From a virus, in UHGV virus genome UHGV-0142065: a stretch of DNA of 30,526 nt. One strand, written 5' to 3'. A program made the translations under genes and the position numbers. Each line of letters opens with the position of its first letter. Within the stretch, counting starts at the first letter, position 1. The notes under the pieces are model-generated. The model made no database searches, was not told where the DNA came from, and worked only from the letters and a program-made list of their open reading frames with translations. Shown piece by piece: positions 3,686 to 27,876 of the stretch.

Positions 3686-4684
3686 ATGAGCGAACAACTT
3701 GAAATCATCCCCCTGAATGTGAGCGCCAAAGGCGAAGTGCTCTCTTCCAATCTGGCCGAATTCCGCGCCTCCGTCAAAACTGTCCTAGACAGTATCAGCC
3801 TCACCCCCGAAACCGATGAAGAATTCGGACTGGCTGAACAAAACGTCAAAATGCTCAAAGGGGCAGAAGATGCCGTCAAGGCTGCCAAGGAAAAAGCCCT
3901 GAAGGATGCCGAAAGCCTCCACCAGTTTTTTGCGGCCCTGGACGATTCCAGCGCGGAAATCAGAACGGCCCGGCTTACGCTCGAAAAGAAGATTGCTGGG
4001 GAAAAGGAGAAAATACGCACCAGCCTTATTGAAAAGGCTCTTGACCTTCTTGAATGCGCTCCCCATTTGCGGAAGAGAGAATTTGGCAACGCCATGACGG
4101 ACGCCATCAAGAGCAAGCGCACCATTAAAAGCATCGAGGCCGCGCTTGATGCCGCCGTGGCAAAAGCAAACAAAGACATCGCAACCAATCGTGAAATCAT
4201 TTGTGAATTCATTGATGTTTGCGGCGAAACTCTCGTGCTTGACATGGACGAGCTTGAAACGAAACCCACTATCTATGTTGAGGCCGAACTGCGCCGCCGT
4301 CAGGATGCTGCCAAAGCCGCCGCAGAACGCGCCAGACTGGCCGAAGAAGCCCGGAAGGCACGGGAAGAAGCCCAACAGGTAAAAGCGGAGCTGAAAGAAC
4401 AGGGCAAGCCTCCTGTGCCGCCATCGCCCGCTGTCATCAACATGACCGCATTTGAGCCGGATCCGGAACCGGTTCGAGCCAAAGCCCCCGCGCCTTCCCC
4501 GGCCCCGGTTGGCGAAGAAGAAGAATGGAGACAATTCCAGGATGCTGTTTTTGATGCATTTGCCCAGATCAAGGAGGCTCGCGGAAAACTTGCCTACCCC
4601 AACAACAAGCGCCGTGTGGCCTATTTCGCGCAGGCCGTAAACGAAGCGTGGAAAGTCTGTGAGGCGGAAGGAGGCCAGCAATGA
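3686..4684 (+). CDS. hypothetical coiled-coil protein with Pro/Ala-rich linker, lying between recT and the exonuclease gene
   Basis: Lys/Glu/Ala-rich heptad-like N-terminal two-thirds, PPVPPSPA...APAPSPAP linker, and a small C-terminal domain. The antisense ORFs 3547..4269 and 3785..4720 have junk composition. Confidence 0.5.
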   Translation: MSEQLEIIPLNVSAKGEVLSSNLAEFRASVKTVLDSISLTPETDEEFGLAEQNVKMLKGAEDAVKAAKEKALKDAESLHQFFAALDDSSAEIRTARLTLEKKIAGEKEKIRTSLIEKALDLLECAPHLRKREFGNAMTDAIKSKRTIKSIEAALDAAVAKANKDIATNREIICEFIDVCGETLVLDMDELETKPTIYVEAELRRRQDAAKAAAERARLAEEARKAREEAQQVKAELKEQGKPPVPPSPAVINMTAFEPDPEPVRAKAPAPSPAPVGEEEEWRQFQDAVFDAFAQIKEARGKLAYPNNKRRVAYFAQAVNEAWKVCEAEGGQQ

Positions 4685-5319
4685 AAATCTGGCCAGCCAT
4701 GGAGCAACGCTCGGAAGCATGGTTCCGTGCCCGTGCCGGTCGTCTTACGGCCAGCAATTTTTTCCGGGTTTTAACCCCCACGGGAAAAGACTCGTCTCAA
4801 TGGCGTGCGCTGGCTATTGAGATGTGTTGCAGCCGCATCCGTCCCGACGAAATACAGTGGGAAGGAAACCGCCACACGGACCGCGGGGAAGAACTGGAAC
4901 CGGAAGCACGGGAAGAATTCAGCCGAATCATGGGGATGGAAGTGGAACAGGTGGGATTTATCGTCCAGGATAACGAACTGGTGGGCTGTTCCCCTGACGG
5001 TATGATCAAGATCAATGGTCAGTACGCGGCGGGTGTGGAGCTGAAATGCCCTCTTGCAAAAAATCACGCGGAATACCTGCTGGACGGCGTATTACCCGGC
5101 CAATACAAGGCGCAGGTACACGGCTCCATGATTGTGACTGGACTCCCGTACTGGTACTTCATGAGCTACTGCCGACGTCTCAAACCCCTGATTTTACGGG
5201 TGGAACGGGATAGCTACACCGACGAACTAGAAGATGCTATTGAGCGATTTATAATCTATTACGCAGATTTTTACAAACTCAACATGCCTAAATTCGTTGA
5301 AGGAAGGAGGGCGGCATGA
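4681..5319 (+). CDS. YqaJ/lambda-exonuclease-like PD-(D/E)XK alkaline exonuclease
   Basis: GCSPDG ... VELKCP (D...E-x-K) catalytic pattern; N-terminal RLTASNFFRVL resembles YqaJ; start overlaps the upstream stop (ATGA). Confidence 0.8.
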   Translation: MKIWPAMEQRSEAWFRARAGRLTASNFFRVLTPTGKDSSQWRALAIEMCCSRIRPDEIQWEGNRHTDRGEELEPEAREEFSRIMGMEVEQVGFIVQDNELVGCSPDGMIKINGQYAAGVELKCPLAKNHAEYLLDGVLPGQYKAQVHGSMIVTGLPYWYFMSYCRRLKPLILRVERDSYTDELEDAIERFIIYYADFYKLNMPKFVEGRRAA

Positions 5320-10313: not shown

Positions 10314-10721
10314 GTTAAATCTGGTAGCCCTATGAGGACTTATAGCATTTATATACAATGATATATTTTTTAGTGTGTTCATAATTGTGATAATGTTGAG
10401 CACATGAGAGGGGATAACGATTGCGTGATATACTGGACACGCAGAGAGCGGGAGAACTGCAATGTAGTCCATTGGTGGGGGATATGGGGGAATGTCATTA
10501 AAGCGGTGCATAATGGGCCGGAATGAGCTGGAAATAGACCGAAAAAGGGAGTCTCCTTGAGCTTGGAGCCCCGAACTGGGTTAAGGGTCATCTGTGTTTT
10601 TGTGTGCATGGTGTTGCAAAATTTCATACAACCATTCCAATAATGCAACGGGAAAAGTACAAAAGGAATGATAATCCGCGGCTCTCCCCTGTGAAGGAAA
10701 ACGCAACGGGGCCGCATTTGT

Positions 10722-11000
10722 ATGTTACGGATTGCAAAAGCTCTTTATGCCTGGGGGATGGTGGATGCCGACGAGCGCATACTACGCTTGAAAGAGGCTT
10801 TAGATAAGGCTGTTGAAGACATAATTGAAAACCAAGGGAAGGAAATCACTCAAGGGAATGTGGGTGATAGCTCATTCCAGTTCGCGCCAGGCTCCATGAC
10901 TGTTGACTTGTGGGTTGAAGCCTTGGGGCTGGCTATCCGCTCTCTTGAGCATGGCCGGTTTGAAGGAGGGAACAACGTTGCAAGGGTGGTGTTCCGATGA
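10722..11000 (+). CDS. gpW-like head completion protein (tentative)
   Basis: Small ORF immediately upstream of, and overlapping, the portal gene as in lambda W-B. The ERILRLKEALDKAVEDII ... GSMTVDLWVEAL pattern loosely resembles gpW. Confidence 0.35.
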   Translation: MLRIAKALYAWGMVDADERILRLKEALDKAVEDIIENQGKEITQGNVGDSSFQFAPGSMTVDLWVEALGLAIRSLEHGRFEGGNNVARVVFR

Positions 11001-13145: not shown

Positions 13146-13168
13146 AAGCGCAACGCCCCGCAATAAGT

Positions 13169-13558
13169 ATGGCACTATTCAAGTCTGATCAAAATATCGT
13201 TGATGCGCTCAAACAAGAGCTTGCCCCTCTTGGGGCAGAAATGAGGGATGGAATTACAGTAATCCAATCCTCTATTAAATCTCTTTGTGAGCGTGTCGAA
13301 GCCCTGGAAAAGGAGAATGTCAAGCTCCACGCATCCGTTGCCCTCAAGAAAAACCAGCTTGAGGAAGAAGCCGATACGAAGGCGAGCCAGAAGGCCGCGG
13401 AAATGGTGTCTGGCATGGGGCATAAAGCCGTAGTGGATAAGCCGGAAGACGGCGAGGAAACCCCCTCTATCCTGGAGCAGTACACGGCGCTTTCCGGAGA
13501 TGAACAGCGGAAGTTTTATGCAGCCCATAAGGATGAATTGATGAAACTTTGTAAGTAA
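13169..13558 (+). CDS. scaffolding-like coiled-coil protein (tentative)
   Basis: Acidic heptad-rich 129-aa ORF between protease and capsid genes. Confidence 0.4.
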   Translation: MALFKSDQNIVDALKQELAPLGAEMRDGITVIQSSIKSLCERVEALEKENVKLHASVALKKNQLEEEADTKASQKAAEMVSGMGHKAVVDKPEDGEETPSILEQYTALSGDEQRKFYAAHKDELMKLCK

Positions 13559-13598: not shown

Positions 13599-14435
13599 AT
13601 GGCACTTTCTGATGCACAAAAGGTAGCTATCCACGGAGAAGTTATTACCTCTTTACGCAAGGCACTAGTTCCGCTCGAATTTCTCAAGAAAGATTTTCGC
13701 ATGGAATATGCCTCCCAGATTAAATTTAAAGATATTAAGGCATCTGGTGAAGTAGTGGAGAATCCTACGTCTTACCAGAACGATAAGGAAAACGACGGTA
13801 ATTTGATTCCGCTCTCTCTTACCGAACTGCATCAAGCTTGGCGAATTACTACGGCTGAAAAGCGTAATGGGTGGAAGTTGGCCGATCTGGCAAAGACAAA
13901 TTCTATTGCTTTTGCCAATGATTTGCACAAGCGTATTATGTCTCTTATTCCGGCGAGCGGAGCAAAGACCATTGGGACCGCTGATAAATTCAACAAGCGC
14001 GGCTGCATCAATTTAAGCGGGGATATTGAATCTGATGAACCCAGGCTGTTATTGACTCCCGATTATTACCGGGCCATTCTTCCGGAAAACACTACGGAAT
14101 TTAAGCTTGATGGAGGCGCCTATGGGTTTGAGTCCATCCACAAAGCAAAAGCTTCCGTCTTTTCGAAAGATGTTGTGGGCGTGGCTTACGAAGGCGGGGC
14201 GATCGCCGTAGGTTCCGCCATCCCGGAAATTGATGATGATCTCAAAGATGACATCAATTGGGAGCTTATCACTATTGATGGCCTTGCAGGGCTGACGGTG
14301 ATGTTCTGCAACTGGATTGACCGCAATACCCGCGCAGAATGGGCCTCCCTGGGCCTGATGTTCGGCGCCAAGATACTTGAGCCGGATAAGGTGAAAGGGT
14401 ACGTTGCCGCTGCTGTCACGCCTCCTGAAAGCTAA
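13599..14435 (+). CDS. major capsid protein (positional call)
   Basis: 278-aa ORF after the protease/scaffold, followed by the strongest intrinsic terminator in the window. Confidence 0.55.
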   Translation: MALSDAQKVAIHGEVITSLRKALVPLEFLKKDFRMEYASQIKFKDIKASGEVVENPTSYQNDKENDGNLIPLSLTELHQAWRITTAEKRNGWKLADLAKTNSIAFANDLHKRIMSLIPASGAKTIGTADKFNKRGCINLSGDIESDEPRLLLTPDYYRAILPENTTEFKLDGGAYGFESIHKAKASVFSKDVVGVAYEGGAIAVGSAIPEIDDDLKDDINWELITIDGLAGLTVMFCNWIDRNTRAEWASLGLMFGAKILEPDKVKGYVAAAVTPPES

Positions 14436-14463
14436 TTTTTTTTGCATTAACTGCTGGTGTTCA

Positions 14464-14493
14464 CCGTCCCGGACTTGTCCGGGGCGGTTTTTT
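14464..14493 (+). terminator. rho-independent terminator after the capsid gene
   Basis: ccgtcccgga cttg tccggggcgg: 10-bp stem with one G-U pair, followed by a T6 run at 14488-14493. Confidence 0.7.
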
Positions 14494-14514
14494 GTGCAAC
14501 GCCCCGCCATTTAT

Positions 14515-14814
14515 ATGAGATTCACAGATGCGGCTAACGCCGCGCACCGGCGCATAAATCAGGTATTACCACAGGCGGAAATTGCCTACCAGGGGAAGAC
14601 ATACCAGGGGTACATGAATTCCCGTGACGTAACCCTTGAACGCCAGGAGGGGGGGTATTGCAACCAGCGGGACCGCATCATTCACATTCAAACGGGGGAC
14701 TCTTTCCAGGTAGGGGGCCGCGTGGAATGTGAGGGGATGAAATTCAAGATTACCGCCGTTACAAGTAATTGTGTTTATAGGGTATTAACTTTATCGGTTG
14801 ATTTGTATGATTAA
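14515..14814 (+). CDS. head-tail joining / head closure-like protein (tentative; start uncertain)
   Basis: ~100-aa ORF directly after the capsid terminator. The Gly/Gln-rich beta-type sequence resembles HK97-type connector proteins. Confidence 0.35.
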   Translation: MRFTDAANAAHRRINQVLPQAEIAYQGKTYQGYMNSRDVTLERQEGGYCNQRDRIIHIQTGDSFQVGGRVECEGMKFKITAVTSNCVYRVLTLSVDLYD

Positions 14815-15547
14815 ATGCAACGTGGAAGGGCTCGACAAAGCTATCAGGGACGGGCACAAAAATATTCAGCGTTTCGGTAGGCTGTTCCTGGACATGTACG
14901 CATCCAATGTGGCCCGCGGTATGTGCTTCAATGCGACTCTCCCACTCGGGAAAAACCGGAAATCCAAGGTGGCCGGGCGAAAGTCCGGGGAAGGTTCTGC
15001 CAGCCGTGACATTGCGCGGGCTGTGGGCGCCCCTGGGAAGGCTTACAGGATGTTCAAGGAACGTGATCCGGTAATGGCTCGTCCCGTGTATGCTATGCTC
15101 CGGCAGAAGAAAGAACAGGAAGCCCAGCAAGTAGCATTTGACAGCGGCGTTCCGGTGACGTTTTACGCCAGTTTCACGAAACGCATGCATAAGGACGCCC
15201 GGCGCCGCGGAACGGTGGACGCCATTACCGGGCGCGTTACGTCAGACAGCCGGGGACTCAAAAAGTACCGCATGGAGGTGTTTAAGCACATAGGCAAGGC
15301 AAAATCTGGCTGGACATGGCCCACCTCTTACGGATGGCAAGCGACGGGACGTCTTCCCCAATGGATTACGCGGCACGGCTTGAACGGCATATACAGGCGC
15401 ACCGGGGATTCCGTGGAAATAATCAACCCTGTACCGTATGCCAAGGAAGCCATGATTGAACGCTTGTTCCCGCTTGTTTATTCTAACGCATTAACCGCCA
15501 CTAACTTAAAACTGCACCATGAATGGAAAAGGATAAATAAATCATGA
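14807..15547 (+). CDS. hypothetical basic neck/structural protein
   Basis: ATG 14807 inside the ORF-track frame that starts at TTG 14798; overlaps neighbours at both ends. Confidence 0.45.
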   Translation: MIKCNVEGLDKAIRDGHKNIQRFGRLFLDMYASNVARGMCFNATLPLGKNRKSKVAGRKSGEGSASRDIARAVGAPGKAYRMFKERDPVMARPVYAMLRQKKEQEAQQVAFDSGVPVTFYASFTKRMHKDARRRGTVDAITGRVTSDSRGLKKYRMEVFKHIGKAKSGWTWPTSYGWQATGRLPQWITRHGLNGIYRRTGDSVEIINPVPYAKEAMIERLFPLVYSNALTATNLKLHHEWKRINKS

Positions 15548-15879
15548 TTGTTGATGACATTGTAAAACACCTACGGAATTCCGGATTTACTGCCTACAAG
15601 GCCGGAAATGAAGAAGATTTAGAACGCAAGCCCTGCGTGGTGGTGGAGATGACGAGCCGCACGCAGCCATGGTTTCCGCTGCCCGCCTGGGATTATACGC
15701 TTTCCGTTGCCCTGATCAATAACCGGTCTGACTCGGAAGCGGAAGAAAAGCTTGTGGAAGCCTTGGGCCGGATGGATTGCGGCGAACGGTGCGACTTTTT
15801 CAACCTGATTGATTCTTCATCCGCGCTGGACGGGGATGATTGGGTAACAACCTGGACAGTGCGCTATATCGAAAGATGA
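15544..15879 (+). CDS. tail terminator / tail completion-like protein (tentative)
   Basis: 111 aa; N-terminal MIVDDIVKHLRNSGFTAYKAG ... KPCVVVEM pattern resembles gpU/DUF3168-type proteins. Last gene before the tail module. Confidence 0.35.
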   Translation: MIVDDIVKHLRNSGFTAYKAGNEEDLERKPCVVVEMTSRTQPWFPLPAWDYTLSVALINNRSDSEAEEKLVEALGRMDCGERCDFFNLIDSSSALDGDDWVTTWTVRYIER

Positions 15880-16012
15880 TTTATATAATATTTTGACAAT
15901 CAATCTAATATACAAAACTTATTCGTAGAAATATCTTGCAAAAAGTTTAGTTTTTCTTCATACTCGCCTTGCCCGGTTGGTCCGGGATTAAAAAAGGAGG
16001 TGTAACATGTAA

Positions 16013-16069
16013 ATGAAGTATGAATTATTAACGCGACTGATTGAACTTCTTATAGTTCTGTTCAGCTAA
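16013..16069 (+). CDS. 18-aa hydrophobic mini-ORF (MKYELLTRLIELLIVLFS), preceded by a consensus SD and an ATG-TAA start-stop (16007-16012)
   Basis: AAGGAGG 15994-16000; its stop codon lies 7 nt before the terminator hairpin. Confidence 0.25.
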   Translation: MKYELLTRLIELLIVLFS

Positions 16070-16075
16070 AAGAAA

Positions 16076-16103
16076 GCCCCGGCCTGCTTCACCAGGCCGG
16101 GGC
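16076..16103. terminator. strong hairpin terminator between head/neck and tail genes
   Basis: gccccggcctg cttcac caggccggggc: perfect 11-bp GC stem. The T-rich tract is stronger on the minus strand (tttcttttag). Confidence 0.6.
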
Positions 16104-16128
16104 GATTGTTTAGAAGGTGAACATGTGA

Positions 16129-16665
16129 ATGTTCCGAATTACTAACGCACCTTTAATATGCCTCATTCCGCGATTTTGTCAAGCGGGAAAGGGAGGTCCG
16201 CCGGAAGCGCAACGCACCGCCATTTGTATGGCACATGCATCTGATTTTATACAGCACGGCGACGGTATCTTCGGGATCAATTATTCCGGAGAACAGGATT
16301 TTGGAGCTATTATTTCTTCCGTAAGTTATTCATGGTCCGCAGAAGGGGATGTTAAACTTAAAGGGGACAAAGGCGTTACTGAAGGGAATACTCTCTATAG
16401 TTCCCAATGCGAAATTACTTGGGAAGCCTACATGAGAAAGACCGGAACGGAGGTTCCGCATATTGGCGACATTGTTGATGTCCATGCGGATGTTTTGAAT
16501 CTCTGCATCAGGAATTTAGGTGAACAAATTCCGGAAAAGGTAACTAAGGCCATCTGCAAGAGTGTAGATATGAAAATGGAGGCAGAGAATTACAGAAGCT
16601 TTACCGTTAAAGCCTCTTATGGCCCGAACATTAAAGCCCTGAACCCGGAAATTGTTTCCGAATAA
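16129..16665 (+). CDS. major tail protein (positional call; true start may be ATG 16228)
   Basis: First ORF after the inter-module terminator and upstream of the chaperone pair and tape measure. Confidence 0.4.
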   Translation: MFRITNAPLICLIPRFCQAGKGGPPEAQRTAICMAHASDFIQHGDGIFGINYSGEQDFGAIISSVSYSWSAEGDVKLKGDKGVTEGNTLYSSQCEITWEAYMRKTGTEVPHIGDIVDVHADVLNLCIRNLGEQIPEKVTKAICKSVDMKMEAENYRSFTVKASYGPNIKALNPEIVSE

Positions 16666-17669: not shown

Positions 17670-19798
17670 GTGTGGTAAAATTCAAATTTTCCGGAGATTT
17701 TGGAGAGGTTTTAAAAGGACTTTCCGGAATTAAAAATAAAATCCATGAAACGGCTTCTGCTGCCAAGAGTATCAAGCTTGGTGGCAATGGAATAGATAAA
17801 GCGGTTTCAGGGATTACACAGTCTTTCCGCGGACTTCTTCCCGCTATTACGGCGGCTTCCGCTGCTATTGGGGCTTTCAATCTTGTCAAATCCTCTGTTA
17901 TGGAGGCTGGCAACAGGGAAACGCTTCAAACATCGTTCGTCCCATTGCTTAAATCTGCCGGAGCAGCAAAAAAACGCATGGAGGAACTTGCTCATTTCGC
18001 CGCCAAAACGCCATTTCAGCTTAACGGCATTTCTCGCGCCTCTGTAACATTGGAGTCTTTGACCGGTGGTGCCCTTGCAACCGGAAAGGGATTGGAAATG
18101 GTTGGAGACGTGGCAAGCGCCCTTAACATTCCCATTGAAGAGCTTGCTACCACCATAGGTCGCTTATGGGCTGGTTTGCAGTCAGGCCGCGCCGTTGGGG
18201 AACCGCTGGCGCGTCTGTCTGAACTTGGGGCCATCACACCAGAAGTTCGCATCCAGCTTGAGGAATTGCAAAAGGCCGGAAAGAAGGGCGATGAAGTTTG
18301 GGAGATTGCAGCCGATTCATTTGCGCGCTTTTCTGGTGGGATGAAAGCACAATCTCAAACCTTGAATGGTTCTATTTCAACCTTCAAAGATAATTGGGAT
18401 GCTCTTAAAGCTAAATTTGGAGAGGGGTTTATTGAAGGATTAACAATTAAGCTACAAGAAATGTCCGATCAAATGGACAAAAATAGTTCTTCTGCAAAAA
18501 ATCTAGGCAAAGACTTTGCAGATGGGTTTGAAATAGCTATTGGTTCTATATCAAATTTTGCGTATGGAACACGAAAATTTTTTGATGGTGTTGATTGGCT
18601 TTTTACTCCTGTTCGGAAAACTCAAGAATTCTTTGGAGTAGTAGAAAAACGCAATGAAGGTGATGCATACCGAGAATACAAATCGGATTATGATTCAAGC
18701 GACAAAATAAAGAACGACTTTGCTAAAATAGATAGTTACCAGGAATTCAATAAGCGTTTACAAGACGTCATTGAAGAACGGAATGCCATGCAAATGAGGC
18801 TTGCTCAAGTGAACGACATGTACAATGAAATTGGTGATGATAATTTAAAAAGTGAAGCCAATTATTTAGTACGTCTTATTAAGTCAAGAGAGAGCCTTAT
18901 TGATGGCTTGAAGGGCTCCGGGATGTTAACCAGGATTGATCAAAATGTCAGGGCGGCCGAGATAAAAAGACAGGAAGCGGAAGCTGACATAAAACTAGCC
19001 AAGGAAGAGAAAGAGCTTGCAAAATCTATCGAAAAAGCGAATGAGGCGGCGCTCAAGGCCCGTGACCGGTGGACGGAGAAGGGGACTGAACGGGAGATCA
19101 ACCAGATTGAAAACCCGTATCAGAAAATTGAAGCATGGCTCAAAACTGTTGACTTGTCCAGCATTGATGAATGGAATAAGGCTTTTGGCGAGCTTGACTC
19201 AAAATTGAGGAATGGCGGCCTGAATCTTGATGAATCTGTCCAGTATGAAAAGCTGCTGGCCGTTGGTGAAATTATCCGCGGCATCAATGATGAAATCTCC
19301 AAGCAAAAAAGGCTTGGGGAAGAGACAGCACGCGATACACAGGAAAACATTGCCATCATGCGGGCCGAGCTCGCCGGGGAAAAGAAAAAGCTGCGTGAGC
19401 TGGAAAAACAGCGGGACGTGCGGAAGGAAATGCAATCCCTCATGAAGGGCGGCATGAATGAACACGATGCCCTGGGGCTGGCGGAACAGAAGGTTTCCCT
19501 GACCTACAAAATTGAGGACAAAAAGGAGAAGGAAAAGGAGGATGAAAAGGACTCCAAGGAGCGGGCAAAGGAAATGTCTGATGCGTTTAAAACGCGGTTT
19601 GACGCAGTGCAGCAGACGCTTTCAAGCGTGTCCCGTGTGGGGTCTGGCTTCGGTTCCCTCTTTGGCCTAGTGGGGAAGGGGGATGCCGGCCTTTCTGCCG
19701 CCGTGGACTCCCTGACAAAAGAGGTACAGACCTCAAACGGATACCTCAAGACGATTGCGGAAAAGGCCGAGAAAGGCGGCGTTGCCCTCTTTAGCTGA
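17666..19798 (+). CDS. tail tape measure protein
   Basis: 710 aa, long coiled-coil and Ala/Gly-rich segments, preceded by the G/GT chaperones. Confidence 0.75.
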   Translation: MSVVKFKFSGDFGEVLKGLSGIKNKIHETASAAKSIKLGGNGIDKAVSGITQSFRGLLPAITAASAAIGAFNLVKSSVMEAGNRETLQTSFVPLLKSAGAAKKRMEELAHFAAKTPFQLNGISRASVTLESLTGGALATGKGLEMVGDVASALNIPIEELATTIGRLWAGLQSGRAVGEPLARLSELGAITPEVRIQLEELQKAGKKGDEVWEIAADSFARFSGGMKAQSQTLNGSISTFKDNWDALKAKFGEGFIEGLTIKLQEMSDQMDKNSSSAKNLGKDFADGFEIAIGSISNFAYGTRKFFDGVDWLFTPVRKTQEFFGVVEKRNEGDAYREYKSDYDSSDKIKNDFAKIDSYQEFNKRLQDVIEERNAMQMRLAQVNDMYNEIGDDNLKSEANYLVRLIKSRESLIDGLKGSGMLTRIDQNVRAAEIKRQEAEADIKLAKEEKELAKSIEKANEAALKARDRWTEKGTEREINQIENPYQKIEAWLKTVDLSSIDEWNKAFGELDSKLRNGGLNLDESVQYEKLLAVGEIIRGINDEISKQKRLGEETARDTQENIAIMRAELAGEKKKLRELEKQRDVRKEMQSLMKGGMNEHDALGLAEQKVSLTYKIEDKKEKEKEDEKDSKERAKEMSDAFKTRFDAVQQTLSSVSRVGSGFGSLFGLVGKGDAGLSAAVDSLTKEVQTSNGYLKTIAEKAEKGGVALFS

Positions 19799-19799
19799 C

Positions 19800-20576
19800 A
19801 TGAACAAGGATATTAAACATACAGGCGGGTATGGGTGGCAAGGCGATTTTGATGCGTCCATGTCTGATGATGGCTCATGGTCGGCAAGCGTTTCTTACGT
19901 GGCGCCCCCTGGGGAGAAATTCACACCTCCTTACACCCTGCATTGCCATGTTCCCGGCTTCACGGATTTGACCCTATCCAACTATGAGCACTCGCAGATT
20001 GCGGACTTATGGAAAACGGTCTGTACCTTCAAAAAAGAAGCCCCTCAAGAAGATGATCCGGATAATCCAGACCCGGACCCTGATGACCCGGACCCCTTTG
20101 ATTTTGACCCCAAGGATACAAAAACCACTTGGGAATTTACGGCTGGCGTAACGAGCAAGAGCATTTTTGACCACCCGGATTTCAAGCCCATGTTTCAGAA
20201 CAATCCGGACCTGCGGAAAGCCTATGAAGCGATCATGTCGGGCCGTGTGGATATTGAATCCCTGAAAATTGACTCCAAGCTGAAAAGGAAAGACCCGTAT
20301 GATTTCGGCCTGGGGGGCGTGAAGTACTCAAAGGAACTTTCTGACCTGTTCAACAAAGTAATAAATAAAGGAATAACTGACTACTATAAAAGGTGTTGTT
20401 CCTATTCTATCACGACCACGGAAGGGAAGGGCCCGGATGCCGCCCTTCAGTCATTGATTTCCGCGGGCGGTGGCAATTTTGTGAAGATGGGAGAGGATAA
20501 CAACCCCTACGGGAGAAAGACGGAAACCACGCAATCTTTTTCCCAGGTTTTGGAAGAAGGCGTTTTGATTATTTGA
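19800..20576 (+). CDS. distal tail protein (hypothetical) with an Asp-Pro repeat linker
   Basis: ATG 19800 overlaps the tape measure stop; contains EDDPDNPDPDPDDPDPFDFDP. Confidence 0.5.
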   Translation: MNKDIKHTGGYGWQGDFDASMSDDGSWSASVSYVAPPGEKFTPPYTLHCHVPGFTDLTLSNYEHSQIADLWKTVCTFKKEAPQEDDPDNPDPDPDDPDPFDFDPKDTKTTWEFTAGVTSKSIFDHPDFKPMFQNNPDLRKAYEAIMSGRVDIESLKIDSKLKRKDPYDFGLGGVKYSKELSDLFNKVINKGITDYYKRCCSYSITTTEGKGPDAALQSLISAGGGNFVKMGEDNNPYGRKTETTQSFSQVLEEGVLII

Positions 20577-26299: not shown

Positions 26300-26322
26300 G
26301 CGCAACGGGCGCGCACTAGTGT

Positions 26323-27876
26323 ATGATGATTTTATGTCAGGGCGCCACATTTGATATTGCTACTACCAGCGGCATTGCTCAATCGGTGATGCTGCGTTTT
26401 GTGGACGGTGACGGCGCGGCAAAAGACATATCCGGAAACACGTTCCGCTGCGCTGTCCGCGGTCCCGGCGCCGCCGCTATTAAATGCGAGCCTATTGACG
26501 CCACAAGCGCGCGCCTTGCATGGAGCCCCCTAAAAGCTGGGGCTCATGCCTATGATCTGTTCATGGCTGCGCCAGACGGCGCAGAACGGCCCTTGATTAT
26601 GGGAGAAATCCAGGCCGCCCCCCGTGTCACGCCACCAGGAAATGAAGACGTGGTAACGATAGGCGACATTAAAATCATAGTCCCCGACGCCGCAGACGGA
26701 GAAGTTAAAATCATTGACCCTTCCGCGGATGCTGCAGAACGTGCGGAGGCCGCAGCTCAAAAAGCCGAAACTGCCGGAACTGATGCCGATACCGCACGGA
26801 AGGATGCGGAAAATGCTCTGAAATTGGCGAACGATGCTGCCGCATCCGCACAAAAGGCCCTTGCCGCCATCCCGCAGGTAGATGCTGTGGGTAATATGAT
26901 GCTGGAGGGTGGTCTGACTGCGAACGGCACCATCAACGCCAATGGTGGCATCAATATTCCGCTTACCGTGGGAGCGCAAACAGGCACGGCAGCCGTGAAC
27001 CGCCTGTATGCCGCAGGAATGGCCGGAGTGACGGACATTTATACCCAGCATGTCTACCTGAACACGGGCGCTATTACGGCGACAGGTACGGCATCTACTA
27101 AAATTCTGATACCTGGCCAGTACGCGCAGACAAACGTCCTGGCCAATACGCACAGTACTGTTATACATACTTTCACGGGGCCGCACGGCCAATGGAATTA
27201 TTCCAGTTTCGCCGGATTTTCTATCCCCTACCAATTAACGGCGGCTGGCAAAATCACCGTAGATATTGGGCGCGGGAGCAAGACGACGCGGCAAGATTTA
27301 TCCCTGGACTCATACAGCATCATTCCCGGTAATAATCTGGCGTACAATACCGGGGAGATACTGGATATTACGTTTGATAATGTGCGCGATACGGCCCGCA
27401 ATGGCTATGTGATCCGCGTCCGTGAAATATACTGTACCGAGTCCACGCAGCTCTGGAAGGTTAAAACCACAACCAGCTTTATCCCTGCTTCCGGTAACGA
27501 GCCAATACCTTATATAGTTAACAAGATCATCTACCAGCAATATGAGCCACGCTCCTACATTGCGGGGGATTATGGCGACGCTTACGGGGCATTGTTTTTG
27601 CTGACCGGAAGCGGTAGCATTCAGCAATTGTGGATGATTGCCACGGTACGAGGGGTTACGACTTTTGAAACGGGGACGGGGTTTAATCGCATTGTGTCAG
27701 ACATGCCGGGGATTGCAGACGGTAGCGTTGCGCTCCTTGTCGGGTCTGCGGAGCGCACCAACTACCAACCGGGCAATGTCAACCCGGTTTACTATGCCCT
27801 GGCCGCGATAGCCGAAAATGCCATTGAAACCGAAGAAACGACTGATTTTGAAGATATTAACGTACCAATAGGATGA
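26323..27876 (+). CDS. tail fibre protein
   Basis: N-terminal domain, then Ala-rich coiled coil AERAEAAAQKAETAGTDADTARKDAENALKLANDAAASAQKALAA, then Gly/Thr/Asn-rich C-terminal domain. Confidence 0.6.
   Translation: MMILCQGATFDIATTSGIAQSVMLRFVDGDGAAKDISGNTFRCAVRGPGAAAIKCEPIDATSARLAWSPLKAGAHAYDLFMAAPDGAERPLIMGEIQAAPRVTPPGNEDVVTIGDIKIIVPDAADGEVKIIDPSADAAERAEAAAQKAETAGTDADTARKDAENALKLANDAAASAQKALAAIPQVDAVGNMMLEGGLTANGTINANGGINIPLTVGAQTGTAAVNRLYAAGMAGVTDIYTQHVYLNTGAITATGTASTKILIPGQYAQTNVLANTHSTVIHTFTGPHGQWNYSSFAGFSIPYQLTAAGKITVDIGRGSKTTRQDLSLDSYSIIPGNNLAYNTGEILDITFDNVRDTARNGYVIRVREIYCTESTQLWKVKTTTSFIPASGNEPIPYIVNKIIYQQYEPRSYIAGDYGDAYGALFLLTGSGSIQQLWMIATVRGVTTFETGTGFNRIVSDMPGIADGSVALLVGSAERTNYQPGNVNPVYYALAAIAENAIETEETTDFEDINVPIG

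Follow-up and report, generated by a model that had tools for sequence, protein, structure and literature searches.

The Ibs peptides of Escherichia coli are very hydrophobic type I toxins of 18-19 amino acids (aa), and Sib is a fully complementary cis-antisense RNA across ibs. In hok/mok/sok of plasmid R1, translation of the toxin depends on a leader frame, mok, which is a long overlapping open reading frame (ORF), and the antisense RNA Sok, which overlaps its target in cis at the 5' end, acts on the leader initiation region. Ribosome profiling with retapamulin has uncovered bacterial start-stops, minimal upstream ORFs (uORFs) in which a Shine-Dalgarno (SD) sequence drives an ATG-stop before a regulated ORF. 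Phages carry antitoxin mimics without a toxin, among them pseudo-ToxI of phage phiTE and Dmd of T4, directed against type III and type II systems, respectively. The par locus of pAD1 has convergent promoters, a shared bidirectional terminator, oppositely transcribed direct repeats that sequester the toxin initiation site, and structured 5' ends (PMC7472228). Here we describe a locus with a similar predicted layout in the virus genome UHGV-0142065 (30,526 nucleotides, hereafter the window). We consider it likely that the locus has a sense/antisense RNA architecture, and somewhat more probable than otherwise that it is a full type I toxin-antitoxin system with a toxic peptide, carried on a ~300-bp mobile cassette common to Akkermansia-type gut phages.

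In the reading that we favor, positions ~15930-16185 of the window would form an autonomous, horizontally mobile cassette with a par/Fst-type regulatory layout. A weak plus-strand promoter would give a ~140-nucleotide (nt) mRNA bearing a 5'-terminal hairpin, an SD, a start-stop uORF and an 18-codon hydrophobic ORF, and a strong convergent minus-strand promoter would give a ~82-nt antisense RNA, with both RNAs ending at one shared bidirectional terminator. The antisense RNA would pair over the translation start region of the peptide, silencing a tiny hydrophobic peptide gene, and a variable box within a repeat would decide which RNA silences which mRNA. The in silico support comprises the anatomy of the unit, its conservation, co-variation, pairing energies and mobility. 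Judging from sequence, both RNAs are likely to be made and the peptide to be translated and membrane-toxic, and the unit may serve prophage maintenance or phage-phage or phage-host conflict.

An initial inspection of this genome from its letters and ORF list (the sequence-only reading) had pointed to an SD, a start-stop, a mini-ORF and a hairpin at this site, and all four are present where it had placed them. Read from the plus strand, the SD is a consensus AAGGAGG (15994..16000), which is unusual here because most genes in the window lack an SD. Six nt downstream is the start-stop, a minimal uORF of ATG-TAA (16007..16012, plus strand) whose stop abuts the ATG of the peptide. The peptide ORF (16013..16069, plus strand; ATG at 16013 and stop TAA at 16067-16069) consists of 18 codons and encodes MKYELLTRLIELLIVLFS*, the candidate type I toxin. 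Its stop had been described as lying 7 nt before the hairpin stem; the gap is indeed short, but it measures six nt (16070-16075). The same ~260-300-bp unit was found in 119 instances, in eight variants (V1 to V8) and in at least three contexts, among fetched phage and gut-metagenome loci. These instances came from pattern scans of IMG/VR and metagenomes; several of the records are from human gut, and some contigs were fetched twice. The features described are not a product of chance, since all parts of the unit are found together again in the 119 instances.

The unit contains a ~45-nt direct repeat. Copy A (15987..16036, plus strand) extends across the SD and the start-stop into the ORF, taking in its first ~8 codons, and would be the target site on the mRNA. 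Copy B (16104..16148, minus strand) lies just past the hairpin, would supply the 5' recognition domain of the predicted antisense RNA and contains a small hairpin, GAACAU-ucac-AUGUUC. The repeat includes a second ATG-stop-ATG (AACATGTAAATG vs AACATGTGAATG). The predicted antisense small RNA, a candidate antitoxin of ~82 nt with estimated ends at 16067..16148 on the minus strand, consists of the recognition domain, the terminator hairpin and a U-tail. Since the 5' 45 nt of this RNA are the complement of copy B, their complementarity to copy A, on the peptide mRNA, is imperfect. The RNA folds into the small 5' hairpin plus the terminator (z = -5.25), and an nhmmer profile of the antisense unit has exactly one match in the window (16053-16187). 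Nothing in Rfam 15 reached the gathering threshold for the cassette; a permissive scan of that database returned only sub-threshold, terminator-driven similarities, such as NsiR1 (26 bits vs 39) and PtaRNA1 (25 vs 47).

Predicted pairing energies connect the two copies. The RNA of the window cassette is predicted to pair with the translation start region of the peptide at -41 to -42 kcal/mol, compared with -13 ± 3 for shuffled controls, and the SD, the start-stop and the first codons all fall inside the predicted duplex. When the entire 30.5-kb window was scanned, the best target of the RNA 5' domain outside its own template was the mini-ORF initiation region (-41.1 kcal/mol, against a window mean of -14.2 with a standard deviation of 4.2). 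Across the variants, which split into two SD-type groups in this comparison, RNAduplex gave -33 to -45 kcal/mol for cognate pairs, -12 to -15 (standard deviation 3) for shuffled sequences and -9 to -30 for most non-cognate pairs. These energies predict some cross-talk among V1, V3 and V4 and among V2, V5, V6 and V7. Each variant has its own box of 10-14 nt, which is the same in copies A and B: GAATTAYTAAC in V1, GACCTAATAC in V2, GGAACTAATAC in V3, GCAWTCAATAC in V4, GACCTGTTGC in V5, GAAWTGGTAC in V6 and ATTGGTATTTACTC in V8. In a permutation test of co-variation between the copies over seven variants, the true pairing had 75 of 84 positions identical, a value reached by 2 of 5040 permutations; this tie arises because V5 and V7 share copy B.

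The translation start is constant in its organization. In all eight variants the SD-proximal ATG is closed after 0-1 codons (ATGTAA, ATGTGA, ATGACTTGA), and the uORF stop either abuts (TAAATG) or overlaps the peptide start codon. Overlapping arrangements provide the start codon themselves, with aTGTGA giving GTG and acTTGA giving TTG, so that the peptide starts with ATG, GTG or TTG. The SD-driven start-stop is a conserved and probably functional part of the unit. As its stop abuts or overlaps the peptide start, peptide synthesis is probably low and coupled to termination-reinitiation, and the start-stop may throttle or gate translation of the peptide.

With the exception of one copy with a premature stop, the frame is open from the SD-proximal start to a conserved stop (TAA or TGA) in all variants. 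The variant peptides are 18-21 aa long (MKYELLTRLIELLIVLFS, MIKYSDLIQRLIELLIVLFS, MRQQELIQRLIELLIVLFN, MIIDWHSIQRLIELLIVLFS, MIKYIDLLQRLIELLIVLFS, MIKYGEMVQRLIELLIVLFS, MIKYSDLLQRLIELLIVLLS and MIVNWYLLGKLIELLIVLLS). They have a constant C-terminal core, (Q)RLIELLIVLFS, i.e. LIELLIVL(F/L), and an N-terminal half that varies because it carries the RNA box. Of 14 minimal changes in the constant 36 nt, 8 are silent in the frame of the ORF, against 28% expected (binomial P=0.02); the corresponding count in each of the other two frames is 4 of 17. The coding signal of the mini-ORF thus appears supportive, if modest.

Promoters were predicted on both strands. The predicted promoter of the peptide mRNA (15936..15964, plus strand) has a -35 element TTGCAA (15936-15941), a 17-nt spacer and a -10 element CATACT (15959-15964); it is weak, matching the consensus at 8 of 12 positions and falling below the threshold of the promoter scan. 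The block ATATCTTGC..GTTTTTCTGTATATT/CATACT is kept across most variants, and in V5 and V7 the promoter is swapped to TTGATT-16-TATGAT with the distance unchanged. The predicted mRNA begins with a 5'-terminal hairpin, CCCGG-uuggu-CCGGG (15972..15986, plus strand), that is present in both minimum free energy (MFE) and centroid folds and has a compensatory counterpart, CCGGG..CCCGG, in other variants. The SD in this mRNA is paired in the MFE fold and unpaired in the centroid. On the opposite strand, the predicted antisense promoter (16155..16182, minus strand) has TTGACA (16182->16177) and CATATT (16160->16155) separated by 16 nt. This sigma-70-type promoter matches at 10 of 12 positions, is joint best in a 4-kb scan and points at copy B and the hairpin. 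Its counterparts, TTGACA-16-CATAGT/CATATT, occur in 115 of 116 instances, the exception being a V8 member with TTGACT-17-CATTCT. Start sites mapped in A. muciniphila by Cappable-seq have -35 and TATAAT-like elements that are sigma-70-like (PMC4782308).

Between the two promoters is an intrinsic terminator with an 11-bp stem and a 6-nt loop (16076..16103) that was called on both strands. The sequence-only reading had described an 11-bp perfect GC hairpin at these positions, which is borne out by 10 G-C pairs. An A-tract (16066-16075) and a T-rich tract (16104-16113) flank the stem, and of the two U-tracts the one of the minus strand (TTTCTTTTAG) is better than that of the plus strand (GATTGTTTAG). 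The terminator is predicted at -24 to -28 kcal/mol in all variants despite 3-4 different stem sequences, with compensatory double changes at 4 of 10 pairs. From stop to stem the gap is 5-8 nt in all variants, and it is occupied by the A-tract that would serve as U-tail of the minus-strand terminator. As a separate observation, the terminator loop (16087-16092 in the window) occurs in both orientations at similar frequency, as in L003/L037 and in L007 vs L009: V1 has CTTCAC (n=7) and GTGAAG (n=6), and V4 has CTGGAA (n=9) and TTCCAG (n=21). The hairpin loop has thus been inverted recurrently, by which the loops of the two RNAs would be exchanged.

The cassette behaves as cargo. When the window was compared by blastn with cassette-less relatives, whose loci were recovered via the tail protein, homology stopped at ~15904 and restarted at 16202, which defines a cargo segment (15905..16201) that holds the cassette at the head-tail junction. 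Several close relatives with the same tail gene have no cassette there. One relative (L047, 575-2474) has a different 1.9-kb insert at the same junction with two ORFs, of 312 aa and 188 aa; the N-terminus of the latter is hydrophobic and signal-peptide-like, and a terminator follows both insert ORFs. As relatives carry nothing related or another insert at this position, the head-tail junction is a variable cargo site. The contexts differ by variant. V1 and V3 share the setting of the window, between a 111-aa gene and a tail gene, and an endolysin precedes V2, V4 and some V6. V5 and V7 are found directly at the 3' end of a LexA/CI-like repressor, and V8 is located between two helix-turn-helix-like genes.

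Among GenBank phages, the sole blastn match is Akkermansia phage Moulinsart (ON453896), an induced prophage of A. muciniphila YL44. The match is restricted to the cassette at ~73% identity (ON453896 ~18,850-19,150), and the ~260 bp concerned have an endolysin on one side and a convergently transcribed repressor on the other. In this record (L001), annotated hypothetical proteins at 3876-3965 and 4125-4232 (WAK79087.1 and WAK79088.1) cover the cassette promoter/5' untranslated region and the antisense promoter and are probably spurious, and the record has no annotation for the 20-codon ORF or the RNA gene. A plasmid collection yielded no cassette match. The putative assignment to Akkermansia rests on Moulinsart, on a distant portal match (26.5% identity) to a Verrucomicrobia phage and on human-gut record labels.

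Other phages have units without the ORF that retain the terminator, the copy B box and the minus-strand promoter. V1-type orphan units adjoin full V3 cassettes at 10 loci. V4-type units occur at 12 loci, in Moulinsart-like phages with V2 or V6 cassettes or alone. A V6-type unit was seen once, and one further box type is present in L155 as an orphan only. The sites include L001 (~4907-5040, corresponding to ON453896 ~19,890-20,030), L039-L041 (~2349-2470), L082, L101-L103, L106, L109 and L155 (1900-2020). Where a full cassette is resident, the orphan box type differs from it, and between the V4 RNA and the resident V2 mRNA no pairing is predicted (-11.6 kcal/mol). The orphan units may be leftovers of cassette replacement or cross-immunity genes.

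A more elaborate scheme, which we regard as speculative and unlikely in its entirety, is RNA-specified incompatibility among Akkermansia temperate phages, in which a constant membrane-active peptide would be combined with a hypervariable antisense box, orphan RNAs that disarm rivals, a start-stop gate and a late sponge. There would be at least eight specificities, and orphan RNAs with a foreign box would act as counter-defence or cross-immunity against the toxin of a rival prophage. The conserved start-stop uORF would be a reinitiation gate on toxin translation. In the context of the window, late read-through transcripts would include a stretch perfectly complementary to the RNA (16104-16148) and could sponge it, so releasing the peptide late in lytic growth.

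The type I toxin-antitoxin reading that we favor has several points to answer. At 18-21 aa the peptide is very short, it has no more than ~10 hydrophobic residues in an uninterrupted run, and searches of Pfam, PHROGs and NCBIfam gave no toxin family for it. The amphipathic moment exceeded that of shuffles in only 4 of 8 variants and was dropped as evidence. With an SD-proximal ATG-stop and GTG or TTG starts, the ORF could be barely translated, and conservation of the constant region could partly reflect an mRNA hairpin (CUGA..GAAC/GUUC..UCAG) that has one compensatory change, in V3. The predicted mRNA fold has no robust intramolecular helix sequestering the SD, unlike that of Fst RNA I, and the promoters and both RNA ends are consensus predictions. 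A degenerate peptide-level pattern found no cassette in the GTDB species-representative genomes, its 24 matches being chance hits in unrelated genes, and the host range therefore rests on phage contigs and Moulinsart. In one V4 cassette (L080, ~4584, minus strand), GAG has become TAG, which cuts the peptide after 12 residues. A separate change is seen in L095 (~1013, minus strand), where the core LIELL reads LIGFL (E-L to G-F). Both may represent toxin inactivation or sequencing error.

Several of these points would suit the strongest competitor, in which the sense/antisense RNAs are real but the peptide is no toxin: the unit would have a regulatory or lysis/lysogeny role, or the small RNA would have other targets, with the mini-ORF region as a cis target or decoy. 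The RNA-level evidence is independent of toxicity, the peptide is extremely short and without a toxin family, and most variants lie beside repressor or lysis genes. Orphan RNA genes also occur without a cognate ORF in the same genome, the V2 translation initiation region and the V4 RNA reaching only -11.6 kcal/mol. Against this, silent changes are in excess and the hydrophobic core is kept strictly, and tight layered repression (a weak promoter, a start-stop and antisense over the SD) is typical of toxins. Loss is also one-way, as orphan antitoxins are common and no RNA-less cassette was noticed, though without a systematic tally. On balance we regard a non-toxic role as a minority possibility that deserves to be kept in mind. 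The toxin reading, for its part, agrees with the alternative offered by the sequence-only reading, that of a small hydrophobic toxin-like product; the cassette evidence fits it, with toxicity a prediction from the peptide sequence.

The co-varying repeats could instead be DNA operators of a phage-specific DNA-binding protein rather than RNA partners, since direct repeats near promoters can be operators and copy B contains a palindrome (GAACATGTGAATGTTC). That palindrome, however, is in copy B only, and the cassette encodes no protein able to co-vary with the box, while one and the same backbone context has cassettes with different boxes (V1 and V3). The repeat coincides exactly with the region from the SD to codon 8 and with the bases transcribed first in a convergent unit that has its own terminator, and three of the nine copy A/B mismatches would be G:U pairs. 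We therefore view operators as quite improbable.

Less probable still is the model first proposed for this site, translation-coupled attenuation or antitermination, in which a ribosome ending on the mini-ORF would occlude the 5' arm of the terminator and tune read-through from head to tail genes. It can draw on the stop lying 5-8 nt from the stem in all variants, and on the position of the cassette in a late operon here, with no plus-strand promoter evident between the cassette and the tail gene. The short spacer is nevertheless explained by the A-tract needed for minus-strand termination, and no helix competing with the 5' arm of the terminator appears in MFE or centroid folds. The cassette is mobile and mostly faces a convergent gene, and downstream of the Moulinsart copy there is no gene in the same direction that it could regulate. 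The cassette is missing from relatives that have this tail gene, and some of them have a different terminator there. Attenuation would also leave the conserved minus-strand promoter and the co-varying repeats unexplained. That the region is a recombination scar, a decayed and functionless second copy of the beginning of the downstream gene (ORF 16129), is suggested by the resemblance of copy A to the sequence around 16129, including the ATG-stop-ATG, yet it is scarcely credible when both copies enter other contexts together, with promoters and terminator intact, and co-vary across eight variants.

The surroundings of the cassette clarify the genes on either side. Family matches in the window give a head-to-tail order of portal (10997), protease (12402) and tape measure (17666), in agreement with the sequence-only reading, which had put the site between the head and tail modules. 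Its label of tail-terminator-like for the upstream gene (15544-15879) has no family match behind it; neither the upstream 111-aa protein nor the downstream 145-aa protein has a match in Pfam, PHROGs or NCBIfam. It had also taken 16129 as the start of the downstream gene, which is an artefact lying inside copy B of the cassette. The first 33 codons (16129-16227) of the 178-aa ORF listed from 16129 are copy B and the minus-strand promoter, and the conserved start, established from cassette-less relatives, is the ATG at 16228; the corrected tail-module gene (16228..16665, plus strand; 145 aa) is outside the cassette. Gene callers likely over-extend the tail gene into the cassette. We had considered copy A as a decayed duplicate of the 5' end of the tail gene, and this was ruled out, as cassette-less relatives show that 16129 is no gene start. 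Because the window cassette is inside a late operon, transcripts of the tail gene must pass its terminator; cassette-less relatives also have a terminator at the junction, which suggests antiterminated late transcription.

Three further features of this region were noted. Four structural genes (starts at 10722, 13169, 16228 and 26323) are preceded by a leader motif that runs into their start codon, AA(A/G)CGCAACG-N10-13-GTATG, at 10703-10724, 13150-13171, 16209-16230 and 26302-26325; the four matches compare with 0.05 expected, and the motif may be a shared translational or late-transcription signal. In the cassette-less loci L042, L043, L052, L053 and L054, a poly-T/poly-G tract ~30 nt before the ATG of the tail gene differs in length from contig to contig (T8G8, T6G10, T6G9, T6G6 and T7G7), which may reflect homopolymers prone to slippage or noise in the assemblies. 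A second strong plus-strand intrinsic terminator (14463-14488), with 11 pairs followed by TTTTTTGTG, is located ~28 nt past a 278-aa ORF ending at 14435, which is a probable capsid gene judged from position only; this terminator falls inside the listed ORFs 14404-14814 (plus strand) and 14049-14510 (minus strand).

Our literature search found no report of a type I toxin-antitoxin system in Akkermansia. If confirmed, the cassette would add a new peptide family under par regulatory logic in temperate phages whose host is a gut commensal of medical importance. Nature would also have provided, in compact form, a case of swappable RNA specificity boxes, with rival phages carrying antitoxin genes alone and a start-stop uORF forming part of the toxin initiation region. 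For annotation, the consequence is that automated calls go wrong in this region, giving a spurious start at 16129 and two probably spurious coding sequences in ON453896, and missing the 18-21-codon ORF and the RNA gene.

With par of Enterococcus faecalis pAD1 (RNA I/Fst and RNA II), the cassette shares convergent promoters and a shared bidirectional intrinsic terminator, opposite transcription across direct repeats such that the 5' end of the antitoxin pairs with the toxin initiation region, a toxin mRNA whose 5' end is structured, and carriage by mobile elements, including phages (PMC7472228). As predicted here, the par layout is present in the convergent promoters, the shared terminator and the repeats over the initiation region. 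The peptides differ in length (18-21 aa, against ~33 aa for Fst) and, compared with the Fst/Ldr superfamily (PMC7472228), they have no proline, hence no PXXXG(C) motif, and no charged tail. The cassette has one long repeat with a variable box, whereas par has DRa and DRb; it has an SD-proximal start-stop uORF, and its mRNA has no robust SD-sequestering 5' stem-loop of the kind in Fst RNA I that we could find. The cassette occurs in Verrucomicrobiota-type phages and par in Firmicutes. Ibs/Sib offers a precedent for a peptide of this length, with no sequence similarity. The likeness to hok/mok/sok is that in all variants the uORF stop either abuts the start of the peptide or overlaps it, inside the predicted duplex; the leader here is a 1-2-codon start-stop in place of a long frame, and the peptide has no Pfam match and is unrelated to Hok. 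In the searchable literature we found no paper that links start-stops to a type I toxin or to an antisense target site. The orphan antisense-RNA units, candidate antitoxins with a box unlike that of the resident cassette, resemble the antitoxin mimics of phages.

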